Shown here piece by piece: positions 8,822 through 29,934 of a stretch of 29,934 nt of DNA; within the stretch, counting starts at the first letter, position 1; the number at the start of each line of letters is the position of its first letter. This DNA is from a virus (taxonomy: Duplodnaviria; Heunggongvirae; Uroviricota; Caudoviricetes). The notes under the pieces were generated by a model. That model did no database searches and was not told the DNA's origin. It was given only the letters and a program-made list of their open reading frames with translations. The stretch spans positions 1 through 29,934 of the IMG/VR virus record IMGVR_UViG_2802429225_000009. The stretch is one strand, 5' to 3'. Position numbers and translations under genes: made by a program.

Positions 8822-8868
8822 AGCGCGCACAAAACAGGCGAAAGCGGGATTTCAGAATCCCGTAAACG
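8771..8868. promoter_or_regulatory. Twin palindromic sites upstream of parM (candidate parC-like centromere/operator)
   Basis: CGGGATTT-ACA-AATCCCG at 8772-8789 (perfect 8-bp arms) and GGGATTTCAGAATCCC at 8846-8861 (7-bp arms). Both are followed by GTAAA, lie about 75 bp apart, and the second is 37 bp upstream of the parM start. Candidate -10 TAATTA at 8871-8876. Confidence 0.4.
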
Positions 8869-9857: not shown

Positions 9858-9860
9858 ATC

Positions 9861-10478: not shown

Positions 10479-10489
10479 TGGAAGTAATC

Positions 10490-10849: not shown

Positions 10850-10853
10850 GAAA

Positions 10854-10894
10854 ACCCGGAACGGGTGCGCAAATTCTTTGTGCGCCCGTTCCGG
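10854..10894. terminator. Bidirectional hairpin terminator between the convergent Rrf2-like and ogr-like genes
   Basis: 11 perfect base pairs (CCCGGAACGGG / CCCGTTCCGGG), extendable to about 17 with wobble pairs, around a 7-nt loop (AATTCTT). A-run upstream and T-rich sequence downstream. Sits between the two stop codons. Confidence 0.6.
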
Positions 10895-10917
10895 GTTGGA
10901 CAAGCGAAGCGCGTCAG

Positions 10918-12275: not shown

Positions 12276-14055
12276 CTGACAGGATCCATGTTGATTTGCG
12301 CTTGTGCTTATAGTTCAGGGGTTCATTACTTGCGGCATGAGCTATGGCAAAGAAGATGTCAGCGTGCCCGGTTTCTTCGCTACGTTCGGCGGTAAAAGTA
12401 ACTTTATTGCCACTGTTGGTGGATTCCTGACGAATGGCCAGGAACGATGCCGGAATATCCGTAGCTTCCTCATCCCACTCAATACGGTTGGCGTAAATCA
12501 GATCCAGCATCTTCATCACCAGGCGGTTTTTGGATTCCACGCTGTAATGAATGGCCACTGTTTCACGGCGGGCAAATCCCTGAACCAGCTCAAAGACACC
12601 GTAGCCAAGACCGGTGACGTCAATGCCGATAAACGTCATGTTATAGCGTGCCTTAATGCTGCGGATACGCTCTGCCATAAACTGGAATGACATGCTGCGC
12701 CAGTGGTGTTTTTCCAGCACGCGGAATCGTTCTGCCGCAACCAGCGGCGGTGCCAGCACAACAAATGTGGCGTTATCGCCGGAGCGCGCAGGGTCAAAGC
12801 CGCCCCAAACCTCACGGTTACCAAATGGCATGGGCTCTTCCGGGTGAAAATCCTCCCACGTACTGACATCAACACCACAACGCACAAGATCATCGAATTT
12901 AAAGACGCTCTCTTTGTCATCCACAAACACACACATAAACAGCATATTGAACGCTGTTTCGTTGTATCGCTCGCGCAGTTCGTTGATGTCAGCAAGGTTA
13001 AAGCCGCCGGCAATGGCATCTTCCAGCGTAACCACATAGCGCCACTGACCATCCGGACATTCACGCCCACCATCGCGCAGCTCATCAAAGGACGGAAACT
13101 CAACCCCTTTTCGTTTCGGATCGCCTTTGCGCCATTCATCGCCAGACCAGAACGGGTAACCCTGGTGTGTTTTGGATGACGGCGTGGAGAAATAGGTAAT
13201 GCGCCAGTGTTTATGGGTGGCCATCCCTGATGCCACTTCATTGAGACGGCGAAAACCGGGGATCCACAGGTATTCATCAATATACAGGTGGCCGCTGTTT
13301 GACTGCGCTGTGTTACTGTTGGTCGCCAGAAAATACAGTTCAGCCAGATTACTTAACTTAACCGGATTGCCTTTAATGGGAATGCCAAACTCTGTTTGTG
13401 CAATTTTTACAATATAAGTACGGAACACTTCGGCCTGACGTTTTGATGCCGATAAAAATATCTGTGTGTCGCCGGTTAATACTGCATCTTCAAATGCCTC
13501 AAACGCGAAGTAATACGTCGCCCCAATCTGGCGGGATTTAAGCAGGTTGCGTACACGGCGGAATTTGTTTTCACGCAGATGCAACTGATAAGCAAACAAC
13601 TTTTTCGTAAACGGCTCAAAACTTTCAGCAGTCAGTCCGGAAACGTCATTAGTTTTGCGGGGACGCTCTTTCTTACCTGCACCTTTTTCTCCGCGTTCTT
13701 CTTTTCCATAACGGCCAGGCTGGGGGATGTCCACTCCCATTCGCGCAATCTCAGCCATTCGTTCCGTGTGCTTGTTTCTGACCGACATTAGTTTGACGTG
13801 ATGACCAATCAGGCGGTCGAGTTCATCGTGTTCTTCCGGCGTTTTATGGTCACGCTCCGCCAGTACAGCGAGACGCCGGGCGATAACATCCTCCACACCT
13901 TCCGTATTGAGCTGCGTGTACCACTCAAACTTTGTCGCCCAGTAATAAACAATTCGCGGGCTGTTCAGTCCGAGTTTCTTTTGTATTTCTTTTGGTGTGT
14001 GCCTTTTCAGATAGAGCGATTTTGCAGCAGCAATCACCTCATCAGAATACGCCAT
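12268..14055 (-). CDS. P: Terminase large (ATPase) subunit, P2 gpP-like
   Basis: 595 aa. Walker-type region near the N-terminal third (RQIGATYYFAFEA...) and nuclease-domain acidic residues. Size and position match P2 P. Confidence 0.9.
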   Translation of the reverse strand: MAYSDEVIAAAKSLYLKRHTPKEIQKKLGLNSPRIVYYWATKFEWYTQLNTEGVEDVIARRLAVLAERDHKTPEEHDELDRLIGHHVKLMSVRNKHTERMAEIARMGVDIPQPGRYGKEERGEKGAGKKERPRKTNDVSGLTAESFEPFTKKLFAYQLHLRENKFRRVRNLLKSRQIGATYYFAFEAFEDAVLTGDTQIFLSASKRQAEVFRTYIVKIAQTEFGIPIKGNPVKLSNLAELYFLATNSNTAQSNSGHLYIDEYLWIPGFRRLNEVASGMATHKHWRITYFSTPSSKTHQGYPFWSGDEWRKGDPKRKGVEFPSFDELRDGGRECPDGQWRYVVTLEDAIAGGFNLADINELRERYNETAFNMLFMCVFVDDKESVFKFDDLVRCGVDVSTWEDFHPEEPMPFGNREVWGGFDPARSGDNATFVVLAPPLVAAERFRVLEKHHWRSMSFQFMAERIRSIKARYNMTFIGIDVTGLGYGVFELVQGFARRETVAIHYSVESKNRLVMKMLDLIYANRIEWDEEATDIPASFLAIRQESTNSGNKVTFTAERSEETGHADIFFAIAHAASNEPLNYKHKRKSTWILSDE

Positions 14056-15160: not shown

Positions 15161-16174
15161 ATGAACATGACACCAGAAGCACAAAAGCTGGTTAATCAGT
15201 ACATCAGCGAACTGCAAAAAACATTCAGTGACTGCGGGAAATCAAGCGATCGTTTCTTTTCGCTGACCGAGCCACGCAGTATTGCTCTGCGTAAAGCCCT
15301 GCTGGAAAGCACGGAGTTTCTGAGTTTCATCACCTGCATGGACGTTCCGCACCCGCAGGGGCAGGTCGTCGCCGTGGGCGAATCCACACTGCGCACCGGT
15401 CGCGTGAAAAGCGGTCGTTTCGCTAAAGGTTCGGGCATCAAAGGCAACGAATTTAAACTCGTTGAAACTGATTCCTGCTGCGTGATCACCTGGGAACAAC
15501 TCGCCATCTGGGCGAATGCCGGCAGCCCGCAGGAATTTTTCAACCTGATGAACTCCGCCGCCGTCACCAACTTTGCGCTGGATATGCTGCGCATTGGCTT
15601 TAACGGTAAAACAGCAGCGGAAAACTCTGACCCGGAAAGTCACCCGAACGGCGAAGACGTCAACATCGGCTGGCATGAAATCGCCAAAAAGTGGGGAGAA
15701 CAGCCCGGCAATACCTCCCGTATTCTGACAGACGCCGTTACCCTGGGCGAAGGCGGCGATTATGTCGGTCTTGATGCCATGGCCTCAGACCTGATCCGCA
15801 CTTACATCCCGGCACAGTATCACAACGACCCACGACTTACCGTACTGGTCGGCGCAGACCTTGTGGCTGCTGAAGAACTACGCCTCTACAACAAAGAGGA
15901 TAAGCCTACCGAAAAAGTGGCCGCACAGTTGCTGACAAAGAACATTGCAGGCCGCAAGGCCATCATTCCGCCGTTTATGCCGGGCAAACGTATGGTGGTG
16001 ACCATGCTGCCAAACCTGCAGATCCTGACGCTGAAAGGCTCCCGCCGCCGCAAGGCAGAAGATGTGGGCGATCGCAAACAGTTCGAAAACTCATACTGGC
16101 GTTACGAGGGGTACGCCCTGGGCGATCCGGATTTATATGCTGCCGTAGATGAGTCTGCGGTCACCATCGCCTGA
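15161..16174 (+). CDS. N: Major capsid protein, P2 gpN-like
   Basis: 337 aa, immediately after the scaffold gene. Size and synteny as P2 N. Confidence 0.85.
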   Translation: MNMTPEAQKLVNQYISELQKTFSDCGKSSDRFFSLTEPRSIALRKALLESTEFLSFITCMDVPHPQGQVVAVGESTLRTGRVKSGRFAKGSGIKGNEFKLVETDSCCVITWEQLAIWANAGSPQEFFNLMNSAAVTNFALDMLRIGFNGKTAAENSDPESHPNGEDVNIGWHEIAKKWGEQPGNTSRILTDAVTLGEGGDYVGLDAMASDLIRTYIPAQYHNDPRLTVLVGADLVAAEELRLYNKEDKPTEKVAAQLLTKNIAGRKAIIPPFMPGKRMVVTMLPNLQILTLKGSRRRKAEDVGDRKQFENSYWRYEGYALGDPDLYAAVDESAVTIA

Positions 16175-17000: not shown

Positions 17001-17495
17001 ATGTTTGACGGGAAAAGCATTCACTATCAGCAGGCCATTATTCAGAACGATGGATTCTGGCCGGATATTGATGCCGGCGATTTTGAAAAGAGCCGCAGCA
17101 TCCCCGCCGTCACGTCACACGAAACGGTGCTGACGGCACTGCTTTGCGCGGTAACAGAGATTAACACTGAACTGGCTGCACGCCGTGAATACTGGCAGGA
17201 ACAGGGCCACATCCGGGCCGCCGATATTCCGGGTTACACCGTGTTGCAACCAGAGCCGCGCAATACGGATGCACAACCTGAACGGATGCAGAACCACATT
17301 ACAGCACTGTACACCAAGGCTGTGTATGCCCGCGCAAAGGCCGATCTTTTGCCGGAATCTGCCAGCGTGGGGCGGCGCGAGGCGCAGCCATCATCAGAAG
17401 CCAGCGAAAGCCGCCGGACGTTGCTGGCTGAAGCGGCCATGGCGGTGCGGGCGCTGCTGGGCCGACCGCGTGCATCCATCGCGCTGATTGATTAA
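17001..17495 (+). CDS. L: Head completion/stabilisation protein, P2 gpL-like
   Basis: Start re-set to ATG 17001 (MFDGKSIHYQQAIIQNDGFWPDIDAGDF...), GGAG 7 nt upstream. 164 aa, close to P2 L (169 aa), with a matching FxPDID motif. The track ORF from 16806 overlaps the end of M. Confidence 0.8.
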   Translation: MFDGKSIHYQQAIIQNDGFWPDIDAGDFEKSRSIPAVTSHETVLTALLCAVTEINTELAARREYWQEQGHIRAADIPGYTVLQPEPRNTDAQPERMQNHITALYTKAVYARAKADLLPESASVGRREAQPSSEASESRRTLLAEAAMAVRALLGRPRASIALID

Positions 17496-17504
17496 GGAAA
17501 TGGT

Positions 17505-17978
17505 ATGACGCAACTCGCCAGCCTGACGGCATTCATTGAAAACAATCTGCCGGCACGCGCACGCATTCCGTTCACCAGTGACATGGACGACATCACGCTC
17601 GTTCCGTTTACGAAGTCGCTGGGGCACGGGCAGTTATGTACGCAGGTCCGAAAATATACGGCTTTTCTGCGATGGGACGCATGGCCCTATCGTCAGCTCA
17701 ATCCGGATTTGGTGTTTTCTCTGGTTGAAGCCTGGCTGGCAGACAACGGCGGCGACCTGCGCCAGCGCCTGGCACCGGATGCGCCAGCCGTTGACGTCGA
17801 AGTGGATGATGAAAATGAAGTGGCATGGCTGGAAATCAGTCTGCCGCTGGTTGATCCCATCACCCTGGTTGAGGACGAAAACGGCCCCATCCCCAGAGGC
17901 GGGAAACGTTACCAGCTGGAAAAGCCTGAAATCTGGGTGGCTCAGGCGCATCAGCTTCACTGTCAGGTGATGCCATGA
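17505..17978 (+). CDS. Putative tail completion protein (gpR-like)
   Basis: 157 aa, similar in size to P2 R, directly after L. Identity is by position and size only. Confidence 0.45.
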   Translation: MTQLASLTAFIENNLPARARIPFTSDMDDITLVPFTKSLGHGQLCTQVRKYTAFLRWDAWPYRQLNPDLVFSLVEAWLADNGGDLRQRLAPDAPAVDVEVDDENEVAWLEISLPLVDPITLVEDENGPIPRGGKRYQLEKPEIWVAQAHQLHCQVMP

Positions 17979-18688
17979 CGCGCCCAGTGATTAACGAGTC
18001 ACAACTCCGGCAGGTTCGTCGCGCCATCAGAGAGGCAGAACTTCCGCCGGCAAAGGCCAGAAAGCTGCTGGTTCGCATTGCGAAATACGGCCTGATACCG
18101 GCTGCACGACGCAATGTGAAAGCACAGCGAACACCGGAGGGGGCAGCCTGGGCACCACGAAAAAGACCGGATAAAGCCAGCGGCAGGTATAAAAACAAAA
18201 TGCTGCTGGGACTGCCGAAACTGCTGGCCATCAGGGTTGACGGCAGCGGGAAAAGTGTCCGCCTTTTCTTCAAAAAAGGGGCTTACAACACCGGCTCTCA
18301 TGGTGGGGCGGTCGCGTGGGTGCAACAGCACGGCGCAACCATCAAAGGCCGCGCCACAAAGCGCCGGGACAGCGAAGCCATGCGCACCCGTCCCGCCACA
18401 CGACGGCAGGCAGAACGCCTTCTTTCTCTGGGCTTTCGCGCCCCCGTCGGCGCAGTCAGCAAAAAGACCGGGCGCAGGGGGCGCAGAAAACCTTCCCTGA
18501 AATGGATTATGGAAAACATGAGTATGGCGCAGGCCGGACTGGTGATCAGCATTCTGAAAGGCGAGCAGAAAAAACGTGTATGGGAAATCAAAATCCCCTC
18601 CCGCGCATTTCTGGGAGCCAGCGATGCTGAATTTGCCCGCATTCTGGAAGCGCAGCTGCGTAGCCTGCATTACGGCGGCACGAGATAA
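17975..18688 (+). CDS. Putative virion morphogenesis / tail completion protein (gpS-like) with a basic C-terminal extension
   Basis: 237 aa, start overlapping the previous stop. Contains a WAPRKRP-type segment I associate with the gpS family. The Arg/Lys-rich C-terminal half is longer than P2 S (~150 aa). Confidence 0.5.
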   Translation: MTRPVINESQLRQVRRAIREAELPPAKARKLLVRIAKYGLIPAARRNVKAQRTPEGAAWAPRKRPDKASGRYKNKMLLGLPKLLAIRVDGSGKSVRLFFKKGAYNTGSHGGAVAWVQQHGATIKGRATKRRDSEAMRTRPATRRQAERLLSLGFRAPVGAVSKKTGRRGRRKPSLKWIMENMSMAQAGLVISILKGEQKKRVWEIKIPSRAFLGASDAEFARILEAQLRSLHYGGTR

Positions 18689-18707
18689 CAAAATCAGGAG
18701 ACAAACC

Positions 18708-19856
18708 ATGACATGGCCATCTGTCACGATTGAACAGTACAACACATTCAGCAGTTCACCGGACGGCGTGGAAAATACGCTGCTGTTTGTGGGCAATGCA
18801 CAAAACAACAAAGGTGAGGTTCTGCCGGTTAATGCCAACAGCGATCTGGATGAGCTACTGGGAAAGAACGCCAGCCCGCTGAAGAACTTCCTTCAGTCTG
18901 CACTGACCAATGCCGGACAGAATGCCTTTTTCTATGTTGCCGTTCTGCCGGAAGCCGGCAAAGGCAAAGAAGCAACGCCAGCCTGCCAGGTATGGCAGAA
19001 CGCCATACTGGCGGCTCAGGAAACTGTTTCAGTTGAAGGCGTGGTGATCACCGAGCCGGTCAGCACGAAGGATGACATCAACGCCATACAGGCGTTACGT
19101 CAGACCATCATCAATAAATATCAGCGCCGCATCTGGTTCATCCTGACCATCGCCGCCAACGACAACAGTAAAACCTGGGCGGAATACGTTGCCGAACTGA
19201 CCGCACTACAGAAAGGCATTGCAGCCCCGCAGGTCATGCTGGTTCCGGAGATTTTTGGATTTGAACCGGGCGTTCTTGCCGGTCGCCTGTGTAACAGCGC
19301 CGTCACCATTGCTGACAGTCCGGCACGTGTGGCAACCGGGCCCCTGTCCGCACTGAAAACCACAGAACGCCCGAAAGACAGCACAGGGCAGGCAATTGAT
19401 CTCGACACTCTGCAGGCGCTGGCAACCGCCCGCTACAGCGTGCCCATGTGGTATGCCGACTATGACGGCCTTTACTGGGCTGACGGTGTAACACTTGAGG
19501 TGGAAGGCGGGGACTACAACGTCATTGAGCATGTCCGCATTGCTGATAAGGTGGCGCGCCGCGTGCGGCTGATGGCCATCCCCAAGATTGCCGACCGCTC
19601 GCTGAACAGCACGCCGGGCAGCATTGCCGCACATGAAACGCTGTTTGCCCGCCCACTGCGTGCCATGGCGAAATCCATGCAAATTAACGGCATCACGTTT
19701 CCGGGCGAAGTGAAATCGCCCCGGAAAGGCGACGTGGTTATCACCTGGCAGGACGAAAAGACGGTCAGCATCAGCATTGTCGTCCGCCCTTACGCCTGCC
19801 CTAAAACCATCAAAGTGGGCATTCAGCTGGATAAATCTCTGGAGGAAAACGCATGA
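18708..19856 (+). CDS. Putative contractile tail sheath protein (not obviously P2 FI-like)
   Basis: Start re-set to ATG 18708 (MTWPSVTIEQYNTF...). 382 aa, followed directly by a ~150-aa gene and then chaperone and tape-measure genes, the canonical sheath-tube-chaperone-TMP order. Function inferred from synteny and size. Confidence 0.5.
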   Translation: MTWPSVTIEQYNTFSSSPDGVENTLLFVGNAQNNKGEVLPVNANSDLDELLGKNASPLKNFLQSALTNAGQNAFFYVAVLPEAGKGKEATPACQVWQNAILAAQETVSVEGVVITEPVSTKDDINAIQALRQTIINKYQRRIWFILTIAANDNSKTWAEYVAELTALQKGIAAPQVMLVPEIFGFEPGVLAGRLCNSAVTIADSPARVATGPLSALKTTERPKDSTGQAIDLDTLQALATARYSVPMWYADYDGLYWADGVTLEVEGGDYNVIEHVRIADKVARRVRLMAIPKIADRSLNSTPGSIAAHETLFARPLRAMAKSMQINGITFPGEVKSPRKGDVVITWQDEKTVSISIVVRPYACPKTIKVGIQLDKSLEENA

Positions 19857-20308
19857 CGACCCGCATTAACGGCATGGCGTTTGACACTTTTATCGGTGGA
19901 ACGGATATCCATGTGAAAAGCATCTCACTGGACATCAGCGATGAAAGCGCCGTTGCCAAAACCCGTGGCATCCCTGACGGCAAACTGCGCGGCCCTGTCA
20001 GTGCCGAAGGTGAAATCGAAATGAGTACCCGCAGCTTTAACCAGCTCGGGGAAGTGGCTGCTCAGGAGGGATCGTGGCGTGACCTGCCGCCAATGGATTT
20101 TGTGTTTTACGCCAACACGGGAACCGAAGAAATCCGCGTTGAAGCCTTCGGTTGTGAGCTGATGCTTTCCGGCCTGTTAAGCATTGACACCGAGAGCGCA
20201 GATCTGACCACGCACAAAATCAAGTACGTGGTGGCAAGCCCTGACTTTGTGCGTATCAACGGCGTGCCCGTTCTCTCAGAGAACGACGTGCGCGGACTGA
20301 TGGGGTGA
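19853..20308 (+). CDS. Putative tail tube protein
   Basis: 151 aa, ATGA-coupled to the putative sheath gene. Function inferred from synteny and size. Confidence 0.45.
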   Translation: MTTRINGMAFDTFIGGTDIHVKSISLDISDESAVAKTRGIPDGKLRGPVSAEGEIEMSTRSFNQLGEVAAQEGSWRDLPPMDFVFYANTGTEEIRVEAFGCELMLSGLLSIDTESADLTTHKIKYVVASPDFVRINGVPVLSENDVRGLMG

Positions 20309-20311
20309 ACC

Positions 20312-20608
20312 ATGCAGGAGCATGAGCGCACCATTATCACTCTGGGTATTCTGGGCGGAATCGCTGCCGCAAGTCGGGTGCTGGCTGGCGCAGAGCCGAT
20401 TACGTTGCGGTTGTTTGTGGGCCGAACCCTGCTGGGGAGCGCGCTGGGTGTTTCTGCCGCTGCCCTGCTGGTTCGCTACCCGAACCTTGACCCACTGGCC
20501 ATTGCCGGCGCAGGCACCGCAATGGGCGTTGCCGGTTACCAGATTGTTGAAATCTTCCTGCGTCATATGCGCCGGAAGCTGGGCGAGAAAGAGAACAAAG
20601 AGGAGTAA
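20312..20608 (+). CDS. Putative holin (small membrane protein with charged C-terminus)
   Basis: 98 aa. Two or three hydrophobic helices (IITLGILGGIAAASRVLAG; LLGSALGVSAAALLV; AIAGAGTAMGVAGYQIV) followed by a charged tail (RRKLGEKENKEE). Located just upstream of the peptidase gene. Confidence 0.5.
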   Translation: MQEHERTIITLGILGGIAAASRVLAGAEPITLRLFVGRTLLGSALGVSAAALLVRYPNLDPLAIAGAGTAMGVAGYQIVEIFLRHMRRKLGEKENKEE

Positions 20609-20613
20609 CAGCA

Positions 20614-20715
20614 ATGCTGTCCCGCAGGGAACAAAAAGCTGCCGCCATTGCCTGGAAAATTATCCGGGCACTGTGGTACTGGCTGCGCAAACCTCAGCAA
20701 CCTCATAAGGAGTAA
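20614..20715 (+). CDS. Possible 33-aa amphipathic peptide between the holin and endolysin genes
   Basis: ATG at 20614 with AGGAG 8 nt upstream. Translation MLSRREQKAAAIAWKIIRALWYWLRKPQQPHKE. Below the track cutoff. Confidence 0.25.
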   Translation: MLSRREQKAAAIAWKIIRALWYWLRKPQQPHKE

Positions 20716-20717
20716 AA

Positions 20718-21059
20718 ATGAAACTCTCCGATAAGCAACAACAATTTACCGTCATGATCGGAAAACTCATCCAGTTTGCCCATCAGCGCGGTTATGGCCT
20801 GACGTTCGGTGAGGCGTACCGCACGCCAGAACAGGCAAAACTCAACGCACAAAAGGGATCCGGCATTGCCAACAGCCTGCACTGCCAGCGGCTGGCCGTG
20901 GATTTTAATCTGTTTATTAACGGTGAATATCAGACCCGCACAGAGGCCTACCGTGAGCTGGGCGAGTACTGGGAATCCCTTGGTGGCGCATGGGGCGGTC
21001 GTTTTAAAAACCGACCGGATGGCAATCATTTCAGCCTTGAGCACGACGGCGTGCGCTGA
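20718..21059 (+). CDS. Peptidase M15-type endolysin (zinc D,D- or L,D-peptidase fold)
   Basis: 113 aa. Zinc-ligand pattern typical of small M15/VanY-like phage lysins: H...D in SLHCQRLAVDFNLF and a C-terminal H-x-H (NHFSLEH). Confidence 0.7.
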   Translation: MKLSDKQQQFTVMIGKLIQFAHQRGYGLTFGEAYRTPEQAKLNAQKGSGIANSLHCQRLAVDFNLFINGEYQTRTEAYRELGEYWESLGGAWGGRFKNRPDGNHFSLEHDGVR

Positions 21060-21065
21060 TTTTAC

Positions 21066-21115
21066 GCTTAATAAGCCTTCCTGCAGGCTTATTAAGCCCT
21101 CTTATTCTTGACTTT
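21066..21115 (+). terminator. Hairpin with T-rich tail inside the late operon (candidate attenuator)
   Basis: Perfect 12-bp stem GCTTAATAAGCC (21066-21077) / GGCTTATTAAGC (21086-21097) with an 8-nt loop, followed by CCTCTTATTCTTGACTTT. The T-tract is interrupted, so termination is probably partial. Confidence 0.4.
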
Positions 21116-21123
21116 AAAAGGAA

Positions 21124-21417
21124 ATGATGATGAACGATAAAAACACACAGACTACCGCAGAGAACACCATCACTTTACAGGTCGGCGAGCATGAACTGAC
21201 GTTTATCCCGACCGTAAAAGCCTACAACGACCTGCAGAACGACTTCATGCCGGATAACAAAATCGCGCCGCTGAAAAACTACCTGCGCCGTATCGTGATT
21301 AAAGAGCACCGCGATCTGCTGAACCAGTTGCTGGAAAAACCAGGAATGCCGGCCAGCCTGGCAACAGCCGTGAATAACGAGTTTGTGCCGGAAGTGGAAA
21401 TCACCGTAAAAAAATAA
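21124..21417 (+). CDS. Tail assembly chaperone (gpE/gpG-like), zero-frame product
   Basis: 97-aa acidic protein immediately upstream of the tape-measure gene. Ends in a poly-A slippery heptamer. Confidence 0.6.
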   Translation: MMMNDKNTQTTAENTITLQVGEHELTFIPTVKAYNDLQNDFMPDNKIAPLKNYLRRIVIKEHRDLLNQLLEKPGMPASLATAVNNEFVPEVEITVKK

Positions 21418-21605
21418 AAAGCCATCTGGGGGCCATTGATCGCAATGACCTGACCCGGATGCTGATTCTGCGCCGCCACTGGCTGCCCGGCGAGGATGAC
21501 TCGCCGCAGTCACTGGCTGCCGCCGTCTGGCTGGATAACCACTACTGGGAAAATATGAGCATCGCCGTCAATAACGGCATTATCCGTGCTTTTAAGGGAT
21601 CGTAA
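21124..21605 (+). CDS. Tail assembly chaperone, predicted -1 frameshift fusion product
   Basis: Slippery heptamer A_AAA_AAA at 21408-21414, just before the zero-frame stop (21415-21417). The -1 frame is open from there to a stop at 21603-21605 that overlaps the tape-measure ATG (extension ...IKSHLGAIDRNDLTRMLILRRHWLPGEDD...AFKGS). Confidence 0.45.
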
Positions 21606-23701
21606 TGTCACAACAGCGCCTTGAATTACTTCTTGAACTGACAGATCGCCTGACAAGGCCGTTGCGTGCAGCCGGGCGACAGGTTCAGGGATTTGCTGCA
21701 ACAAGTCGGGGAGCCTTTCGGGACATTGCTACCGGAGGCGCTGCGCTCTGGGGAGTGGGTGCAGCCATTCAGGGGGCACTGATGCCAGCCATTGAAATGG
21801 ACAGGGCGCTCGGTGAGGTGAAATCACTGGGCGTCGCAGAGTCCGGATTGCGTAAACTCAGCCGCGCCGCCGTTGATTTCACTATGGAATACGGCGGGGC
21901 TGCGCAGGATTTTGTGCGTGCTTCTTACGACATCCAGTCAGCCATTGCCGGGTTAACTGACGATGAGCTGTCCCGCTTCACCACCGCATCAGCAACGGTG
22001 GCAGCAGCAACCAAATCCAGCAGCCAGACCATTACCGCCTACATGGGCACCATGTACGGCATCTTTAAAGACCAGGCTGATGCCATGGGAAAAAGTAAAT
22101 GGGTGGAGCAGGTCGCCGGGCAAACCGCCACCGCCGTGCAAATGTTTAAAACAACCGGCGATAACATGTCAGCGGCGTTCACCACGCTGGGGGCTAGTGC
22201 AAAAGCGGCCGGTATTGATGCGGCTGAACAGTTCGCCGTGCTGGGACAACTACAGGCCACCATGAGTGGCAGCGAGGCCGGGACAAAATACAAGGCATTT
22301 CTTGCCGCAGTAGGTAGCGCCCAGAAAAAGCTGGGGCTTAATTTCGTGAATAAAGACGGCACCATGAAAAGTGTTGTCGAGATCATGAAACTTATCAGGG
22401 GTAAATTTGGTGATCTGTCAAAAGTGGCTGATTCCGATTTGCTAAAAAGCGCCTTTGGCTCCGATGAAGCTGTGGCCATGATTAAATTACTCAATGCGGA
22501 CATTGGCGGACTTGAAAAGAATATCGCCACGCTGGGCAATATCAAAGGTATGGATAAGGCTGTCGAAATGGCGCAGGCCATGGCTGATCCATGGGAACAG
22601 GCCGCTGCAATTATTAACGGCATTCGCATCGAAATTGGCACGCAGTTGTTGCCTGTTCTGTACCCGTTTATCCAGAAAAGCAACGAAGGCGGTAAATCCT
22701 TTGTTGCCTGGTTACGCCTGTATCCAAACATCACTCGCGCAATCGGCTTATTAAGCGCGGCACTTATTGGTGTTGCGGCGGTTGGCGCAACGGTCAATGT
22801 CGTAATGGGGGTTGCGAAATTTATCTGGGTGGGATTACGCATGGTCTGGATGGCCGTCATCGCCCCACTGAAATTAATCGTTTTTCTGTATCGCACAATG
22901 AGAGTGGTTATGCTTGCGTTCTGTGCTGCCGCCCGCATGGTAAGAGCAATATATCTGGCAATAAACATCGCCATGGGAGTGATGAATATTCGCGCCAGAG
23001 CACAACTGCTATTGATGGGCCTACAACGTGCCGGAATGCTCCTGCAGGCAGCAGCATTATCAGCCGTTTCTGTTGCCATGGGGATTTATTCCGCAGTCAC
23101 CAGCGGAGCCGCAATTGCAACACAGTTACTTTTCAGCCCCATCACATTAATCATCCTGGCACTGGCTGCGCTGGGTGTGGGCATTTATTTCCTGATTACC
23201 CGCTGGGATGAAATCAAAGCTGCACTGATGGATACCGCTGCATTTCAGTGGGTTGCCGGCATCATTAACAGCATGGGGGCGTGGTTCGGCAATGCATGGA
23301 GTGCAATCAGGGATGGCTGGAATGCACTGGTTAACTATTTTTCCACCCATTCACCACTGGATGCCCTGAAGGATCTCGCGGGCGGCATACTGAATATTTT
23401 CAGCAACCTCTGGGAACTGGTGAAACAGTCCTTCAGTGATTCATGGGGCTGGATTGTGGACAAACTCAACATGATCCCCGGCGTTAACATCGGCACATCA
23501 GAAAGCACAGGAAGTGGCGAAGGCTCCGTATTAACCGGCGGCAAAGCCATCAGTGCGGGACCGGGCGGCATTGCGGCAGAGATGCAGAACAACAGCGAAA
23601 ACCAGACCACCATCGACAACTCCCGTCGTGTGGTCAACGTCAATGTGCAGGATCCATCCCCTGCCCGTCTTAACGAGTGGATGGAGCTGCATGCATACTG
23701 A
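21605..23701 (+). CDS. Tail tape measure protein
   Basis: 698 aa. Alpha-helical, Ala/Gly-rich, with a central run of hydrophobic segments. Follows the chaperone frameshift site. Confidence 0.85.
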   Translation: MSQQRLELLLELTDRLTRPLRAAGRQVQGFAATSRGAFRDIATGGAALWGVGAAIQGALMPAIEMDRALGEVKSLGVAESGLRKLSRAAVDFTMEYGGAAQDFVRASYDIQSAIAGLTDDELSRFTTASATVAAATKSSSQTITAYMGTMYGIFKDQADAMGKSKWVEQVAGQTATAVQMFKTTGDNMSAAFTTLGASAKAAGIDAAEQFAVLGQLQATMSGSEAGTKYKAFLAAVGSAQKKLGLNFVNKDGTMKSVVEIMKLIRGKFGDLSKVADSDLLKSAFGSDEAVAMIKLLNADIGGLEKNIATLGNIKGMDKAVEMAQAMADPWEQAAAIINGIRIEIGTQLLPVLYPFIQKSNEGGKSFVAWLRLYPNITRAIGLLSAALIGVAAVGATVNVVMGVAKFIWVGLRMVWMAVIAPLKLIVFLYRTMRVVMLAFCAAARMVRAIYLAINIAMGVMNIRARAQLLLMGLQRAGMLLQAAALSAVSVAMGIYSAVTSGAAIATQLLFSPITLIILALAALGVGIYFLITRWDEIKAALMDTAAFQWVAGIINSMGAWFGNAWSAIRDGWNALVNYFSTHSPLDALKDLAGGILNIFSNLWELVKQSFSDSWGWIVDKLNMIPGVNIGTSESTGSGEGSVLTGGKAISAGPGGIAAEMQNNSENQTTIDNSRRVVNVNVQDPSPARLNEWMELHAY

Positions 23702-24041
23702 TAAACCGCTTTACATTGATTTGCTCATCACCGGCCGCAATCTCACGCTGAACAGCGCCAGTGAGCCGGTGTTATGCAACAACAGGGAAAGTATTGCCCA
23801 GGACTGCCAGCACGCCATCATTGAGAGCGGACTGGCAACGCGCCTGCTGGCTGAAAAAAGCCCGACGCTTCGTGCCGACATCATGATGCAGATGACACTG
23901 CTGATTGAAGATGATGAGCGCATCACACCTGGCACGGTCAGTGTGACAGAAGAAACCCTGCTTTCTGGTCGCCTGCTGATTAGCGCCCACACCGAAGATT
24001 TTTTTGAACCCCTGACTTTTACGGTATCTCTTGATGATTAA
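23691..24041 (+). CDS. Putative small baseplate protein (gpW/gp25-like by position)
   Basis: 116 aa starting at ATG 23691, overlapping the tape-measure stop. Directly upstream of the J-like gene, as W precedes J in P2. No sequence-level confirmation. Confidence 0.4.
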   Translation: MHTDKPLYIDLLITGRNLTLNSASEPVLCNNRESIAQDCQHAIIESGLATRLLAEKSPTLRADIMMQMTLLIEDDERITPGTVSVTEETLLSGRLLISAHTEDFFEPLTFTVSLDD

Positions 24042-25218
24042 CGGCAAACCTACCGCAGATTACGAGCGCATTCTGGCTGATAATGGCATGCCGGTAACCG
24101 AAGAACAGGCACGTGCTGAATTTGAAGCCATTGTCAAAGACGAAGGGCTTATCACCAACACATCCCGCATGTCGCCGTTCTGGCGACTGATTACAGCTAT
24201 CACCACAAAACCCGTAATGTGGCTGAAAGATGCGCTGGTTAATGTGGTGATGAAAAACCTGTTTCTGGCTGATGCCAGCGGTGTATTCGTTGATGTTTTT
24301 GCCTGGGCGGTAAACCTGCAACGCAAGGCCGCCACGCACGCAGCCGGCGTGATTCGTTTCACCAAAAACGACATTGATCACGCAGTTACCGTGCCGGCCG
24401 GTACGCAGATTCAGACAGAACGCATTAACGGCGTGATTTATACGCTGACCGTTGTCAGGGATACCGTTATTCCGGCAGGAACACTCAGCATGAACATCGA
24501 TGTTTCTGCGGAACAGGCCGGAGCCGGCTTTAACCTTGCGCCGGGATATTACCGCATCCTTCCGGTGGCGATTGATGGTATTGCCGGTGTTGAGAACGAT
24601 GAAAACTGGCTGACCACACCGGGTGCCAACGAAGAAAGCGATGACGAGCTGCGTGATCGTGTTCGCAATCAGTTTAATCTTGCCGGCGCTTATCACACAG
24701 ATGCTGTTTACCGGGGATTAATTGCCGGCGTTGCCGGCATCAGTGCCGACCGCATCTATTTTCTGCATGACGCACCACGCGGCCCCGGCACAGCAAATGC
24801 TTACATTCTGCTGGATACTGGCATCGCATCCGAACCGTTCGTTGATGCAGTAAACGCATTCATTAACGATGAAGGTCATCACGGACACGGTGATGATCTG
24901 CGCTGTTTTTCCATGCCTGAAACACGCCACACCCTGACCGTGACACTCTGGTTATATGCAACACTGAACCTCAGCGATGAGGAAATTCAGACGTTATTGC
25001 GCAATGTGGAAAATCTGGTTCGCTGTGCATTTCGAGAAAACAGCGATTATGACGTTCAGAAAACATGGCCGTATAGCCGTTTCAGCATGTCCAGACTGGG
25101 CGAAGAGATCCACCAGGTATTTCCACAGGTGGAGTCGGTTACATTTTCTCTTCCGGATATTCTCAGTGATCTGGCTGTTCCTCGTCTGGAATCCCTTACT
25201 GTGGAGGTGAGCGCGTGA
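24034..25218 (+). CDS. Baseplate J-like protein
   Basis: Start re-set to ATG 24034 (the track begins on TTG at 24031). 394 aa, upstream of an I-like gene and the fibre gene, matching the J-I-H order. Confidence 0.7.
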   Translation: MINGKPTADYERILADNGMPVTEEQARAEFEAIVKDEGLITNTSRMSPFWRLITAITTKPVMWLKDALVNVVMKNLFLADASGVFVDVFAWAVNLQRKAATHAAGVIRFTKNDIDHAVTVPAGTQIQTERINGVIYTLTVVRDTVIPAGTLSMNIDVSAEQAGAGFNLAPGYYRILPVAIDGIAGVENDENWLTTPGANEESDDELRDRVRNQFNLAGAYHTDAVYRGLIAGVAGISADRIYFLHDAPRGPGTANAYILLDTGIASEPFVDAVNAFINDEGHHGHGDDLRCFSMPETRHTLTVTLWLYATLNLSDEEIQTLLRNVENLVRCAFRENSDYDVQKTWPYSRFSMSRLGEEIHQVFPQVESVTFSLPDILSDLAVPRLESLTVEVSA

Positions 25219-25850
25219 AACTTCCGGAGATCCCTGAACTCCCGCTCCCCACCTGGATGAATAAAGGCGAGCCGTTAACGCTGGCACATTCATCGCATCG
25301 CTACTGGGAAAAGGTATACAGCTGGCTGACGTGGCCACTACAGCAGATTGATGTCGACACCTGCGCAGAGCCTTTACTTAACCTGCTGGCTTATCAGCGC
25401 AATATCACCCGATTTAAAGGTGAGCCGGTTTCGTTATTTCGCTTAAGAGTGAAACACGCGTTTATTAACGCTCAGGACTCGGGCGAACGCGCCGGCTTCG
25501 AACGCATCTTTAAGCGTCTTGGCGTGGGAGACGTTAAAACACTGGAACGGCAACTGCAGCATGACTGGGACGTTATTTTACTGCGCATTAATGACACCCA
25601 GTTAAGTGAAAACAACGCGCTGATGATGCAGCTCGTGCGCCAGTATGGTCGTACCTGCAGGCGCTATTTCTTTCAGGTAATCAATACAACCACTGCCCGG
25701 CTGACAGCCGGCACATTTGATGGCCATTACAGGTATCACACAGCAGAAGCAACGGTGAGAAAGGACACCATCTGGTTAACCGCTTCGCTACAGGCAGGAC
25801 ATTACGGCCTGTCCGTGGAGCATTACACATTACAGGCAGACGAAGCATGA
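25215..25850 (+). CDS. Baseplate/tail protein I-like
   Basis: 211 aa. Apparent GTG start at 25215 with GGAGG 7 nt upstream, overlapping the J stop (GTGA). Alternative ATG at 25257. Confidence 0.65.
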   Translation: MKLPEIPELPLPTWMNKGEPLTLAHSSHRYWEKVYSWLTWPLQQIDVDTCAEPLLNLLAYQRNITRFKGEPVSLFRLRVKHAFINAQDSGERAGFERIFKRLGVGDVKTLERQLQHDWDVILLRINDTQLSENNALMMQLVRQYGRTCRRYFFQVINTTTARLTAGTFDGHYRYHTAEATVRKDTIWLTASLQAGHYGLSVEHYTLQADEA

Positions 25851-27547
25851 GCACGATTATTACTGAACAGTACGAACACTGGTGTGCGAATCAGCTCATC
25901 AGTGGAAAACCTGCGCGCCCGGATACATTTGTTTTTGCATATATTCCGGGACAGGATGAATCCGCAGAGATCCCCCGCGATGAGATACTCCCTGATGAAT
26001 CCATGATTCAGTATCGTGCGCCGGTCACCCAGTACGGCCTCCTGTCGCCGAACGCGACCGCGTTTTCCATCATTCTGGACACGACAGTCGGCGACTTCGA
26101 ATACAACTGGATCGGCCTGCTGAACGAAGAAAGCGGCGTGCTCTGCATGATTGCACACACACCTCGTCAGCAAAAAATTAAAACAGCGAACGGCGTACAG
26201 GGAAACAACCTGATCCGCACATTTTCCATGGAGTTTGACGGCGCAGCCGCAGCAATGCATATCGATGTCAGTGCTGATGTCTGGCAGATTGATTTCACTG
26301 CACGCCTTGCAGGAATGGATGAGGCCCGCCGGCTGCTGGCGTTTGATCACTACGGTGAAGCCGCTTTTCTGGGGGATGGTTTTCAGGTCAGCTATCAGGA
26401 TGGTACCGCTACTGTTGCCGCCGGCGTGGGTTATGTGGGAGGTCTGCGCGTCAGTCTGCGCGAACCTTACAGCCTGCCGGCTGCGGTCGGGGATACCATT
26501 TGGATTGATGCAAGCTGGCAGGGATTTGTTACCGGCGAATGGAATACCGTTTTTACGTTCTGCGCCCGCCAGGAACATGCGTCCTATACAGACGGTAACG
26601 GCTTCCGACACTTTGTCGCGCCACTTGCGAAACTGACATCAGAAGGCTTACAGGATTTACGTCCACAGACGCCCGATGAAGAACAAAGCAATGCACTGGC
26701 AGAGCACGAAAAATCCCGCCGTCATCCGGACGCAACACTGAAGGAGAAAGGCTTTGCGCAGTACAGCAACTCCACCGACAGCGACGCAGAAGACCGCGCC
26801 GCCACATCAAAGGCAGTAAAAGCCGCAATGGATAAGGCAAAAGGCGCTGTTGAGCGTGACGGCGACACCATGACCGGGGAACTGAAAATCCGTGGTGTTA
26901 ATGCGCTGAGGATTTTCAACGAAGCCTTTGGTCTGATTTTTCGTCGTTCGGAAGAGTGCCTGCACCTTATCCCTACCAGTGAAGGTCAGGGCGAGAATGG
27001 CGATATTGGTCCACTTCGACCGTTCACTATTAATCTGCGGACGGGTGAAATATCCATGTCGCATAAAGTGTCTGTTGGCGGCGGTTCTCAGGTCAATGGT
27101 GCGCTGGGTATCGGCGTTCAGAACGCACTGGGCGGAAACTCAATTGCTTTCGGGGATAACGATACCGGCCTGAAACAGAATGGTGATGGCCTGCTGGATG
27201 TTTATGCCAATAGCGTGCATGTGTTGCGTTTTCAGAGTGGCAGTATCCAGAGTAATAAAGCTGTAAACGTTACAGGACGGGTAACACCGTCAGACTACGG
27301 AAACTTTGATGCCCGTTACCAGACCAAAACAGGCGGCGTGCAGGATGTGCGTTATGGTTCCGAAATGTATTACAACCCGGGAGGTAACCAGATATCCTGG
27401 ACATTTCGCTCACCTTCAGGCCACGGGTTATCCGGTATTAATGTGCAGGAAACCGGAAGTAATTCGGCAGATAACATCGGCGGCGTGTATTACCGACCGC
27501 TTCAGAAACTGATTAACGGTACCTGGTATAACGTGGCGAGTGTTTAA
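25847..27547 (+). CDS. H: Tail fibre protein, P2 gpH-like N-terminal region
   Basis: 566 aa. The segment EHEKSRRHPDATLKEKGFAQYSNSTDSDAEDRAATSKAVKAAMDKA matches the remembered conserved gpH block (EHEQSRRHPDASLTAKGFTQLSSATNSTSETLAATPKAVKAAYD). Distal part is Gly/Asn/Ser-rich. Confidence 0.85.
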   Translation: MSTIITEQYEHWCANQLISGKPARPDTFVFAYIPGQDESAEIPRDEILPDESMIQYRAPVTQYGLLSPNATAFSIILDTTVGDFEYNWIGLLNEESGVLCMIAHTPRQQKIKTANGVQGNNLIRTFSMEFDGAAAAMHIDVSADVWQIDFTARLAGMDEARRLLAFDHYGEAAFLGDGFQVSYQDGTATVAAGVGYVGGLRVSLREPYSLPAAVGDTIWIDASWQGFVTGEWNTVFTFCARQEHASYTDGNGFRHFVAPLAKLTSEGLQDLRPQTPDEEQSNALAEHEKSRRHPDATLKEKGFAQYSNSTDSDAEDRAATSKAVKAAMDKAKGAVERDGDTMTGELKIRGVNALRIFNEAFGLIFRRSEECLHLIPTSEGQGENGDIGPLRPFTINLRTGEISMSHKVSVGGGSQVNGALGIGVQNALGGNSIAFGDNDTGLKQNGDGLLDVYANSVHVLRFQSGSIQSNKAVNVTGRVTPSDYGNFDARYQTKTGGVQDVRYGSEMYYNPGGNQISWTFRSPSGHGLSGINVQETGSNSADNIGGVYYRPLQKLINGTWYNVASV

Positions 27548-27549
27548 CA

Positions 27550-28101
27550 ATGTTGCATTTAAAAAATATTACTGCGGGTAATCCGAAAACCGCGGAACAA
27601 TATCAGCTGACAAAACAATATGGTGTCACCTGGCTTTTTTCGGAAGACGGCAAAAACTGGTATGAAGAACAGAAGAACTTTGCCAGTGACACCATAAAAA
27701 TGGTTTACACCGGAGACGGGCGCGTGGTGTGGGTCGGTAAGGATGTGACAGGCATTGAACCCCGTAACGCCAGTGTTATTGAAGTTCCGGATATTACCGC
27801 TAATCGCCGTATTACCGCGCCTGGTTACTGGTTTTACCGCGATGGCAATTTTATCTTCGACTACAAACTTAAAGCGGAAGATGAGCGTGATGCACTGTTA
27901 AAACAGGCCAGTATCATGACCAGCGAATGGGAAAAAGACCTGCTGCTGGGATTAATCAGCGACGAAGACAGGGAAAAACTGAAAGCCTGCCGTATTTATA
28001 CAAAAACGTTACGGGAGATGACATTCAGCCAGGTTACAGATAAAGCATCGTATGCCGCGATTGTATGGCCAGAATTACCGCAGAACATTAGCGAGAATTA
28101 A
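27550..28101 (+). CDS. Tail fibre assembly protein (gpG/Tfa-like)
   Basis: 183 aa, immediately after the fibre gene. N-terminal conserved start and C-terminal VWPELP-type motif typical of P2 G / lambda Tfa family. Confidence 0.75.
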   Translation: MLHLKNITAGNPKTAEQYQLTKQYGVTWLFSEDGKNWYEEQKNFASDTIKMVYTGDGRVVWVGKDVTGIEPRNASVIEVPDITANRRITAPGYWFYRDGNFIFDYKLKAEDERDALLKQASIMTSEWEKDLLLGLISDEDREKLKACRIYTKTLREMTFSQVTDKASYAAIVWPELPQNISEN

Positions 28102-28107
28102 GAAGTA

Positions 28108-29934
28108 ATGAGCGCATTGTTGACGAAAGCATTTGAAAAGTGGGTTGCTGAATGCACAGCCAGTAATTTACCTGCACGCCCTGATGCTATTATTTTTGCC
28201 CTGATGGAGCGGGAACCAACGCGCGAAGATAATACCGTTCCGGAAGAAAAAATCACATATGCTGTGAATGAACTGACTTACGGCCAGTTAAGCCCGAACA
28301 ATATTGTGTGTAGCGCGGTTGTTCCTGATGACTGTGCATTCAGTTATGACTGGATTTGCCTTATCCATCAGGCCAGCGGAACACTATGCGGCGTAATAAA
28401 GACGCCTGTTCAACAAAAAGTAACAGGCGAATCACTTATTCGTAATTTCACAATTATATACAGCGGCATTGCTCAGGCTGCGCAAATTACCGTTCCTCCA
28501 CAGAGCTGGCAGGTAGATCTTTTCCCTGAAATAAACAAAAAAGCGCCACTGGACAGCCCGGCGTTCACCGGCACACCAACCACACCAACTCCGCCAGACG
28601 ATGCGGTCGGGCTGGAGATGGCGAACGCAGCGTTTGTTCGCAAACTGCTCGCCGCACTGGTTGACTCATCACCGGAAGCCCTGGACACACTGAACGAACT
28701 GGCAGCGGCGCTGGGCAATGACCCGAACTTTTCGACGACGGTCATTAGCGCGCTGGCGGGTAAACAACCGCTGAACGATTTGCTGACGGCAATCAGTGAA
28801 CTGACGAAACGGGCAGATAATCTTCTGTACTTTAATCAGGACGGGAATGTTTCTCTCTCTCCGCTGTCAGAAAAAGCCCGCGCATTACTGGCACTGGACA
28901 CACCTGAAGCCATGCGCACGGAACTTGAACTGAAAGCGGCTGCAACGATGGAGTCCCAGAGCAATATCCGCGACCGCACACCAGGCAGGCTGGCGCTGCC
29001 GGGGGCATTTGGATACGGAATGACAGAGCACGAGGGGATGGTGCTCGGCATTACAAATCTTGATGAGCTTGCGTTGATATGCATGAACACAGAACCAGGT
29101 CGATATTACACATCATCAATGTCATCAGGTGATTTAACTGGTGTAGTCGAATTTATCTGGCTGGACAACTGGCAGAATGACAAAACCAGCCAGACAGCAA
29201 CAAAACTTATTCTGTTTTACGGAAGAGACGGACGTATTCTTTCCAGCGTTCGCGGCTCTGACTACGGAGCCCCTGTTGTATGGAGAGATCTTACCCCATT
29301 AACTGGCAACACAACTGTAAAAGACGCGCAATCGGATATCCGGGATCGTACACCTGGCAGGCTGGCGCTGTCCGGCATGTATGGATTCGGCCAAGCATTT
29401 ACCAGCACCGAAGCCCTGACATTTAACGGACAGGCCGATTTTGCTGAATGGCTGAAAGAGGCCACCCCGGGGCGTTATGCGGTCAGTATTGCGGACTCTT
29501 CCACACTACTGGCGGGCACCACGAAATTTAACGGCATCATTGATGTGATGTGGTCACCCTTTGATAACGACGAGTCGGACACAACGCGCAAATTCAAAAC
29601 GCTGCTGTGTTTTAACCAGTATTACGAAGGTGAGCACAGTATTCATCGCCTGACTTACCGCTGGAGTGGAAACAACTGGAATGCAACAGTAAGCCCCATT
29701 ATTTACGACGGCGATTCGCTGGCGTTCCTGCTGTCCAGGACAGCTGGCTCAGGCTCATATTTCAAATACCCGGCAGTGGGTGTTCCGGTGCTGGCTGTTT
29801 ATCGCGGAACAACTTCCGGGGATAAAGAAATCAAAATTGGCCTGGGTGATGTGGTGCAGGGGTCACAACTGGGCGGAGTTAATCTTTCGTGCACAATATC
29901 TTCTGCGGGGGCTGGCTCCTACGGTTCCACACCG
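28108..29934 (+). CDS. Second tail fibre protein (side-tail-fibre / Stf-like), 3' partial
   Basis: Open frame from ATG 28108 to the window end (609 codons, no stop), absent from the ORF track because it has no in-window stop. N-terminus (MSALLTKAFEKWVAECTASNLPARPD...) parallels the first fibre. The segment SPEALDTLNELAAALGNDPNFSTTVISALAGKQPLNDLLTAISEL matches the conserved block of lambda Stf / Mu S / P1 S-type fibres as I remember them. Confidence 0.7.
   Translation, partial: MSALLTKAFEKWVAECTASNLPARPDAIIFALMEREPTREDNTVPEEKITYAVNELTYGQLSPNNIVCSAVVPDDCAFSYDWICLIHQASGTLCGVIKTPVQQKVTGESLIRNFTIIYSGIAQAAQITVPPQSWQVDLFPEINKKAPLDSPAFTGTPTTPTPPDDAVGLEMANAAFVRKLLAALVDSSPEALDTLNELAAALGNDPNFSTTVISALAGKQPLNDLLTAISELTKRADNLLYFNQDGNVSLSPLSEKARALLALDTPEAMRTELELKAAATMESQSNIRDRTPGRLALPGAFGYGMTEHEGMVLGITNLDELALICMNTEPGRYYTSSMSSGDLTGVVEFIWLDNWQNDKTSQTATKLILFYGRDGRILSSVRGSDYGAPVVWRDLTPLTGNTTVKDAQSDIRDRTPGRLALSGMYGFGQAFTSTEALTFNGQADFAEWLKEATPGRYAVSIADSSTLLAGTTKFNGIIDVMWSPFDNDESDTTRKFKTLLCFNQYYEGEHSIHRLTYRWSGNNWNATVSPIIYDGDSLAFLLSRTAGSGSYFKYPAVGVPVLAVYRGTTSGDKEIKIGLGDVVQGSQLGGVNLSCTISSAGAGSYGSTP
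28964..29384 (+). repeat. Intragenic direct repeat in the second fibre gene
   Basis: About 50 bp at 28964-29015 and 29338-29389 share roughly 80% identity, including a perfect 15-mer GGCAGGCTGGCGCTG (28984-28998 and 29358-29372). They encode a repeated SxIRDRTPGRLAL(P/S)G..G(Y/F)G motif 374 bp apart. Confidence 0.6.

Follow-up and report, generated by a model that had tools for sequence, protein, structure and literature searches.

The late gene block of a probable HP1-subgroup Peduoviridae prophage in Escherichia coli and the place of its hub and spike

The viral record IMGVR_UViG_2802429225_000009 (Caudoviricetes) was analysed over positions 1 to 29,934, and this whole stretch of 29,934 nucleotides is called the window below. 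Positions 17001-25850 carry virion and lysis genes whose order raises two questions: whether head genes arranged as in phage P2 have been joined to a foreign tail module, and where the hub and the spike of the tail are encoded, as neither gene is seen where P2 would have it. We consider it highly probable that this region is the late (virion and lysis) block of a temperate member of the HP1 subgroup of the Peduoviridae integrated in Escherichia coli, and that the "missing" hub and spike are one fused orf35-like gene located after the fibre genes, past the end of the contig. The arrangement itself is familiar from the sequencing of the HP1 genome onwards, and nothing is new here except an E. 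coli prophage lineage that had been undescribed as a phage.

Gene order and origin of the head and tail modules

The open reading frames (ORFs) of the window were searched with Pfam and PHROG profiles, and their products were compared with those of P2, Haemophilus phage HP1 and Salmonella phage SI7 in a blastp table of best hits only. The genes named in the original prediction were all present at the positions and in the order it gave, each with a strong profile match. Those from the portal to the last baseplate wedge gene are given here with families, E-values and amino acid identities:

11241-12275, minus strand: portal (gpQ-like), 344 aa; Pfam Phage_portal; 54% to HP1 orf15, 37% to P2 gpQ
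12268-14055, minus strand: large terminase (gpP-like), 595 aa; Terminase_6N, Terminase_6C, Terminase_5; 53% to HP1, 44% to P2
14250-15146, plus strand: capsid scaffold/protease (gpO-like), 298 aa; PF05929, 4.3e-37
15161-16174, plus strand: major capsid protein of the P2 family (gpN-like), 337 aa; PF05125, 5.8e-83; 48% to SI7, 31% to HP1, 29% to P2
16192-16902, plus strand: small terminase (gpM-like), 236 aa; PF05944, 2e-36; 40% to HP1, 25% to P2
17001-17495, plus strand: head completion protein or head-tail adaptor (gpL-like; HP1 orf20); PF05926, 3.8e-28; phrog_71; 34% to HP1, 28% to P2
17505-17978, plus strand: tail terminator (gpR-like; HP1 orf21); PF06891, 4.6e-16; phrog_65
17975-18688, plus strand: tail completion protein (gpS-like, Neck1 position; HP1 orf22); PF05069, 1.4e-8; phrog_26, 4e-24
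18708-19856, plus strand: predicted contractile tail sheath (DUF2586; HP1 orf23); PF10758, 3.4e-127; phrog_907 "tail sheath", 2e-147
19853-20308, plus strand: putative tail tube (Phage_HP1_Orf24 family); PF10772, 1.1e-49; phrog_1182 "tail protein"; 50% to HP1 orf24
20312-20608, plus strand: holin (P2 gpY-type); PF04550, 5.5e-28; phrog_175; 39% to P2 gpY
20718-21059, plus strand: endolysin, M15 peptidase; PF13539, 3.2e-11; endolysin PHROGs; 80% to SI7 endolysin
21124-21417, plus strand: tail assembly chaperone (gpE-like; HP1 orf26); Phage_TAC_10, PF10963, 1.6e-26; 40% to HP1 orf26
21605-23701, plus strand: tape measure (HP1 orf27); PF10145, 7.5e-29; phrog_28, 8.9e-92
23691-24041, plus strand: small baseplate protein DUF2590 (HP1 orf28); PF10761, 5.2e-36; 58% to HP1 orf28
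24034-25218, plus strand: baseplate wedge (gpJ-like, Baseplate_J; HP1 orf29); PF04865, 1.1e-31; phrog_6
25215-25850, plus strand: baseplate wedge (gpI-like, Tail_P2_I; HP1 orf30); PF09684, 7.4e-5; phrog_1228, 8.2e-82

Based on Pfam matches and orientation, a P2-family head module of six genes was recognised, with portal and large terminase pointing leftward and scaffold, capsid, small terminase and gpL genes pointing rightward. Order and protein sizes of the head genes follow P2, as had been predicted. The tail order is not that of P2: the P2 record runs L-X-lysis-R-S, then V-W-J-I-H-G, then FI-FII-E-T-U-D, and the map of the window does not match it. The suggested resemblance to the HP1 branch held, as the block is collinear with HP1 orf20-orf32 and with SI7. 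Both of these phages show the order adaptor, terminator, Neck1, sheath, tube, holin, lysin, chaperone, tape measure, DUF2590, J, I, fibre, fibre assembly, orf33, orf34, orf35; as in HP1, the holin-endolysin cassette of the window lies among the late genes, with the tube gene before it and the chaperone gene after it.

Every head and tail protein was closer to its counterpart in HP1 or SI7 than to that in P2 (blastp). No match below E = 0.1 was obtained by blastp or tblastn with P2 FI, FII, W, V, U, D and X, and for the sheath, tube, DUF2590, J and I proteins and the orf33-35 products described below P2 gave no blastp match at all. Identity to SI7 is similar in the head (42-55%) and in the tail (36-60%), with no step at 17.5 kb, nor does the GC content change abruptly where L and R meet. 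From head proteins that resemble HP1 more than P2, an even identity to SI7 and a level GC content we conclude that no head/tail recombination junction is specific to this prophage.

A recent recombinant, in which the P2-subgroup head module of an enteric phage had been fused with an HP1-type tail module at the gpL/gpR boundary, would fit the P2-like order and sizes of the head genes, and P2-like parts do exist in the prophage: the integrase is 54% identical to that of P2, the holin 39% to gpY and the fibre assembly protein 42% to gpG. Nevertheless, portal, both terminases and gpL are closer to HP1, and the equivalent combination of head and tail is found in HP1, SI7, ESSI-2, phiO18P and others. 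We regard such a recombinant as very unlikely, and the idea of a recent mosaic was rejected on the blastp result that the head proteins, too, belong to the HP1 lineage. The original prediction was correct on the non-P2 order of the tail genes; its term "mosaic", for a P2-type head joined to a foreign tail, was misleading. The truly mobile pieces are small: the P2-like integrase, the gpY-like holin, the gpG-like fibre assembly protein and the fibre tip. The difference between P2 and HP1 tails is ancient, lineage-wide and published (PMC2771037, Lavigne et al.; PMC10612066), and a study from 2023 makes the case that an ancient event brought an older paralogue of this module into one of the two clades (PMC10612066).

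Among 5426 complete E. coli genomes, about 41 contain 80% or more of the region, with an identity of 96-98%. A nucleotide-level search of phage records gave no match beyond the fibre tip, and the prophage therefore represents a genus-level lineage distinct from SI7/SW3/SW5, ESSI-2 and vB_YenM_324. In tblastn searches with the sheath, the nearest sequenced phages were Cronobacter phage ESSI-2 and its E. coli relatives, Yersinia phage vB_YenM_324 and Salmonella phages SW3, SW5 and SI7 (about 55-56%), followed by phiO18P, F108, HP1/HP2, phi3 and Vibrio phages; all relatives listed are HP1-subgroup Peduoviridae. No sequenced phage thus has a sheath that is more than 56% identical to the one of the E. 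coli lineage.

Probable hub and spike genes past the contig end

The original prediction had found no gpV-like spike and no gpD-like hub between the tape measure and the J-like gene, and this was correct: none of the ORFs in the window matched gpD, gpV, gpU or gpX, either in Pfam and PHROG searches or in tblastn with the P2 proteins. When P2 X, U, D, V, W, FI, FII and E were compared by tblastn with the window together with contig L004 (GCA_014519945.1), no significant match was obtained, and therefore no P2-type hub or spike is hidden there. The right end of the window is occupied by fibre genes:

25847-27547, plus strand: tail fibre 1; Phage_tail_fib N-terminal domain and fibre repeats
27550-28101, plus strand: tail fibre assembly protein (gpG-like); PF02413, 1.4e-22; 42% to P2 gpG
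28108-29934, plus strand: tail fibre 2, incomplete; 609 codons open to the last base

A look-up with the fibre assembly protein led to contig PTSR01000022.1 (GCA_002965345.1), which stops exactly at the end of the window and holds the matching incomplete gene of 609 codons; the window is therefore cut off on its right by a break in the assembly, inside fibre gene 2. In contig L004 and in E. coli A36 the same fibre has 645 aa. Contig L004 is 100% identical to the window over positions 17550-29934 and then continues with the 645-aa fibre, a DUF4376 protein, a 237-aa protein, an HP1_ORF34 protein (191 aa), a 565-aa protein, hok/gef, com, a DNA methyltransferase and the host genes raiA, bamD and rluD. 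Two complete genomes, those of E. coli A36 and MB07081, show a right end of the same kind, and in identical copies the prophage is about 6 kb longer than in the window. In HP1 the cos site is reported to be adjacent to attP (PMC2771037).

A defective prophage or tailocin-like remnant that truly lacks hub and spike and could not build a working tail is even less probable than the recombinant. It would explain the absence of both genes from the window and the abrupt end inside a gene; this end, however, is also that of a contig, every virion ORF of the window is intact, and the identical contig as well as two complete genomes carry intact orf33-35 directly downstream. The apparent lack of hub and spike is best read as an artefact of the contig break and of the HP1-specific position and fusion of these genes. 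Of the two places that had been proposed for them, the one beyond the right end was correct, as indicated by the orf33, orf34 and orf35 homologues in contig L004 and by the fused fold predicted for the orf35-like protein; highly divergent genes in the P2 position were not found, the genes being most probably relocated and fused as in HP1.

The proteins of 237, 191 and 565 aa are homologous to HP1 orf33, orf34 and orf35 and to SI7 gp22-24 (blastp). The 565-aa orf35-like protein matched phrog_2258 "baseplate protein" (4e-233). An AlphaFold2 model was calculated for a 99%-identical representative from an alignment of 36 sequences; its N-terminal 240 residues had a predicted local distance difference test score (pLDDT) above 80, and its C-terminal third was poor, as expected because a trimeric beta-helix was modelled as a monomer. 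In Foldseek searches of the PDB, full-length fused hub-spikes came first, namely Alg8 (7aef_q, 2e-16), Pvc8, VgrG of the type VI secretion system (T6SS) and Afp8, with E between 1e-16 and 1e-13. Hub-only proteins followed, namely Mu gp44, the MuSo2 43-kDa protein, the pyocin R2 hub and T4 gp27, with a TMt (template modelling score normalised to target length) of 0.5-0.6; overall, matches of the hub half span E 1e-16 to 1e-8. Matches in BFVD were named "Phage protein D" or "Late control GPD". The predicted structure thus confirmed a hub fold with a gpD-like N-terminus. For the other half, the profile of the family gave weak but coherent matches to PDB sequences (E 0.004-0.02), with residues 409-503 resembling the beta-helix of T4 gp5 and residues 312-344 the OB fold of VgrG. 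The protein can be modelled as a VgrG-like fused polypeptide with a gpD-like hub in the N-terminal and a gpV/gp5-like spike in the C-terminal part, the spike half being drawn from these weak profile matches and the literature; a fusion of gpD and gpV has already been described for HP1 in a paper of 2023.

For the two smaller proteins much less was obtained. The orf34-like protein had HP1_ORF34 "baseplate complex protein" as its only Pfam match and a function-unknown PHROG match, and its link to gpU is called uncertain in the literature. For the orf33-like protein there was no Pfam match, and the PHROGs it matched are all of unknown function. Searches of the PDB with both sequences, and with the orf34 profile, gave nothing meaningful. 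One might speculate that the inner baseplate of the HP1 type is a different sort of structure from the one in P2, Mu and T4, with a VgrG-like single-chain hub-spike and with lineage-specific orf33- and orf34-like proteins that replace tube-initiator and LysM components of the gpU/gpX type, the tail module then being an ancient paralogous contractile machine closer to the spikes of extracellular contractile injection systems (eCIS) and T6SS than to P2. We think this rather unlikely, but clearly less so than any of the alternatives to an HP1-type prophage considered here.

Some features of the right end were observed in addition. Two fibre cassettes follow each other, each with a Phage_tail_fib N-terminal domain, the first consisting of fibre 1 and the gpG-like protein and the second of fibre 2 and the DUF4376 protein beyond the window. 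The tip of fibre 1 and its assembly gene share 91-95% DNA identity with the Shiga toxin (Stx) phage phiP27 and with Actinobacillus phage vB_Apl-pPE4. Cargo is present after the hub-spike gene, comprising a Hok/Gef toxin, a Com zinc-ribbon protein and an N6/N4 DNA methyltransferase (L004, 16871-18212; L001, 35420-35563). The late region is inserted beside raiA/bamD in some strains and beside serS in E. coli A36, where the early region is partly different. In E. coli MB07081 (L009, 20109-21620), fibre 2 is listed in RefSeq as a pseudogene that is partial, and behind it, still within the tail region of the prophage, stands a partial pseudogene for a "shikimate transporter"; this may be an annotation oddity or an insertion at the locus of fibre 2.

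Sheath, tube, chaperone and lysis genes

The original prediction had allowed that the putative sheath and tube might be something else. For the sheath, the assignment was borne out by structure: the AlphaFold2 model of the DUF2586 protein of the window had a pLDDT of 75, and its top 48 Foldseek matches in the PDB were all contractile sheaths (best E 5.5e-10), including DSY3957, Lin1278, the phage Milano sheath, the AFP sheath, phage 812 and T4 gp18. A sequence search against PDB chains gave nothing meaningful, and it is the predicted fold that confirmed the DUF2586 protein as a contractile sheath. For the tube, the comparison with P2 FII and the PDB was negative; the Orf24-family protein is probably the tail tube, judged by its family, its place right after the sheath, and published HHpred and virion mass spectrometry data. 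HHpred links HP1 orf23 and orf24 to P2 FI and FII, and homologues of both sheath and tube were detected by mass spectrometry in purified virions of the HP1-subgroup phage ACA1 (PMC10612066, Tables S1/S2).

That both proteins are misassigned, with the real ones elsewhere or the tail non-contractile, is the least probable alternative of all: the Pfam name of the sheath family is merely "DUF2586", neither protein has a sequence-level match in the PDB and the tube profile does not match P2 FII, but the predicted DUF2586 structure matches contractile sheaths only, homologues occur in ACA1 virions and are linked to P2 FI and FII by HHpred, and no other candidate genes exist in these genomes of about 30-36 kb.

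Several results nevertheless weigh against reading the block as part of an HP1-type prophage with a fused hub-spike. The orf33-35 genes lie outside the window itself, and their presence in the genome from which the window derives would follow from the identical contig. In the orf35-like model, the C-terminal beta-helix (residues 353-456) has a pLDDT below 50, so that the spike half comes from the weak profile matches and published work. The orf34-like family, when aligned with P2 gpU (PF06995), reached an hhalign probability of 0.1, which gives no support for homology. The tube had no PDB match by sequence or by a profile of 57 sequences, and hhalign against P2 FII likewise gave a probability of 0.1. 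Finally, tblastn comparison of P2 LysA/B/C, HP1 orf25 and the SI7 Rz protein with the window and contig L004 revealed no recognisable spanin gene (Rz/Rz1 or LysB/LysC) in the lysis cassette; the HP1 and SI7 records each have a spanin gene after the endolysin.

Further features were located in and behind the lysis cassette and at the end of the chaperone gene:

20614-20715: 33-codon ORF that fills the gap between holin and endolysin; MLSRREQKAAAIAWKIIRALWYWLRKPQQPHKE
21066-21097, plus strand: hairpin with a 13-bp stem between the endolysin and chaperone genes, the strongest terminator-like site in the scan
21408-21605, plus strand: A_AAA_AAA slippery site (21408-21414) and extension in the -1 frame, gpE+E'-like
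21459-21605, plus strand: DUF6890 ORF, 48 aa; PF21830, 3.5e-24

The hairpin is possibly a terminator or an attenuator. The chaperone gene ends with GTA AAA AAA TAA, where the heptamer stands in the canonical phase just before the stop, and the -1 frame stays open between 21378 and 21605. In HP1 and SI7, A_AAA_AAC is found at the equivalent place, with 60-63 open codons up to the start of the tape measure. Because HP1 and SI7 share this geometry of the slippery site, DUF6890 most likely represents no separate gene but the E'-type extension in a frameshift pair of the gpE/E+E' kind; the ACA1 paper annotates an equivalent frameshift feature (PMC10612066). The DUF2590 protein, like HP1 orf28, is assigned as a gpW/gp25-like sheath initiator by published HHpred only (PMC10612066).

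Taken as an HP1-type tail, the parts fit the minimal plan of a contractile tail, and an assembly pathway can be proposed from them. The tape measure, held by the chaperone pair of the gpE/E+E' type, would sit on a central hub. Hub and spike would be formed by a trimer of the orf35-like protein together with the orf34-like and orf33-like proteins, for which these roles are suggested. Wedges of DUF2590 (gpW-like), gpJ-like and gpI-like proteins would complete the baseplate and carry the two fibre types. On this baseplate the Orf24-type tube and the DUF2586 sheath would polymerise, gpR-like and gpS-like proteins would cap the tail, and the gpL-like adaptor would join it to the P2-type head.

Early region and comparison with known systems

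The early region of the window contains the following genes:

1-1023, minus strand: tyrosine integrase, P2-like, 54% identical; the window starts at its stop codon
3941-4771: SPFH/Band-7 protein
5999-8821: gpA-type replication protein, unusually long (940 aa)
10424-10849: Rrf2-family regulator

A gene for an ogr/delta-type zinc finger is convergent with the Rrf2 gene, and a hairpin with 21-nt arms (10853-10897) lies between the two. An actin-like plasmid partition pair was found at 8898-10176 in this integrase-bearing prophage, consisting of ParM (StbA_N and ParM C-terminal domain, 3.8e-82) and StbB/Plasmid_stab_B, and it is also present in the prophage copies of E. coli A36 and MB07081. Just upstream of it are two copies of a 39-nt repeat (8755-8793 and 8828-8866), each with the palindrome CGGGATTT...AATCCCG, which could be a parC-like centromere or an operator. 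The phage could therefore also have a plasmid-like or segregating stage. A search for the Ogr-type late-promoter motif TGT-N12-ACA found 6 copies where 7.2 were expected and none in the P/O intergenic region, and a sigma-70 scan gave nothing useful; operon boundaries are therefore inferred only.

Beyond annotation the late block has little significance, as it belongs to an incomplete but otherwise normal HP1-subgroup prophage. It is a reminder for prophage callers and annotators that in HP1-type Peduoviridae the essential hub and spike genes stand after the fibres, at the end of the prophage, and are usually labelled "hypothetical protein" in RefSeq. The ParM/StbB pair in an integrase-bearing prophage of the P2/HP1 type is more unusual than the arrangement of the tail genes itself.

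Compared with known systems, the orf35-like protein is best matched in structure, over the full length, by VgrG, Pvc8, Afp8 and Alg8 of T6SS and eCIS, which combine a gp27-like hub and a gp5-like OB fold and beta-helix in one chain, as is predicted for the orf35-like protein. Sequence identity to them is only about 10-14%, the orf35-like protein belongs to a phage tail and is encoded outside the window, and its C-terminal half is of low confidence. Enterobacteria phage P2 (Peduovirus) shares the order and sizes of the six-gene head module, gpR- and gpS-like proteins, the functional parts list of a simple contractile tail, an ogr-type regulator, a gpA-type replication protein and a similar integrase. 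In P2, however, the lysis genes stand between L and R, gpD and gpV are separate, and sheath, tube, W, J, I, U, D and V have no detectable sequence similarity.

Haemophilus phage HP1 (Hpunavirus) has the identical order from the portal to the fibre assembly protein with the lysis cassette at the same place, the families DUF2586, Phage_HP1_Orf24, DUF2590 and HP1_ORF34, and the conserved -1 frameshift site of the chaperone. An orf33-35 block with fused gpD-gpV after the fibres, as in HP1, is predicted for the prophage from contig L004. Protein identity to HP1 is only 23-58%. The endolysin of the window is an M15 peptidase and its holin P2 gpY-like, whereas HP1 has a signal-arrest-release (SAR) muramidase; an Rz/LysB-like gene is lacking, two fibre cassettes are present instead of one, and the prophage has an ogr/delta-type regulator, ParM/StbB and a P2-like integrase. 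The closest sequenced phages are SI7/SW3/SW5 (Irrigatiovirus), ESSI-2 (Seongnamvirus) and vB_YenM_324; SI7 differs in its Rz-like spanin gene and single fibre gene, and the late order is shared, including DUF6890 and gp22-24, the equivalents of orf33-35.

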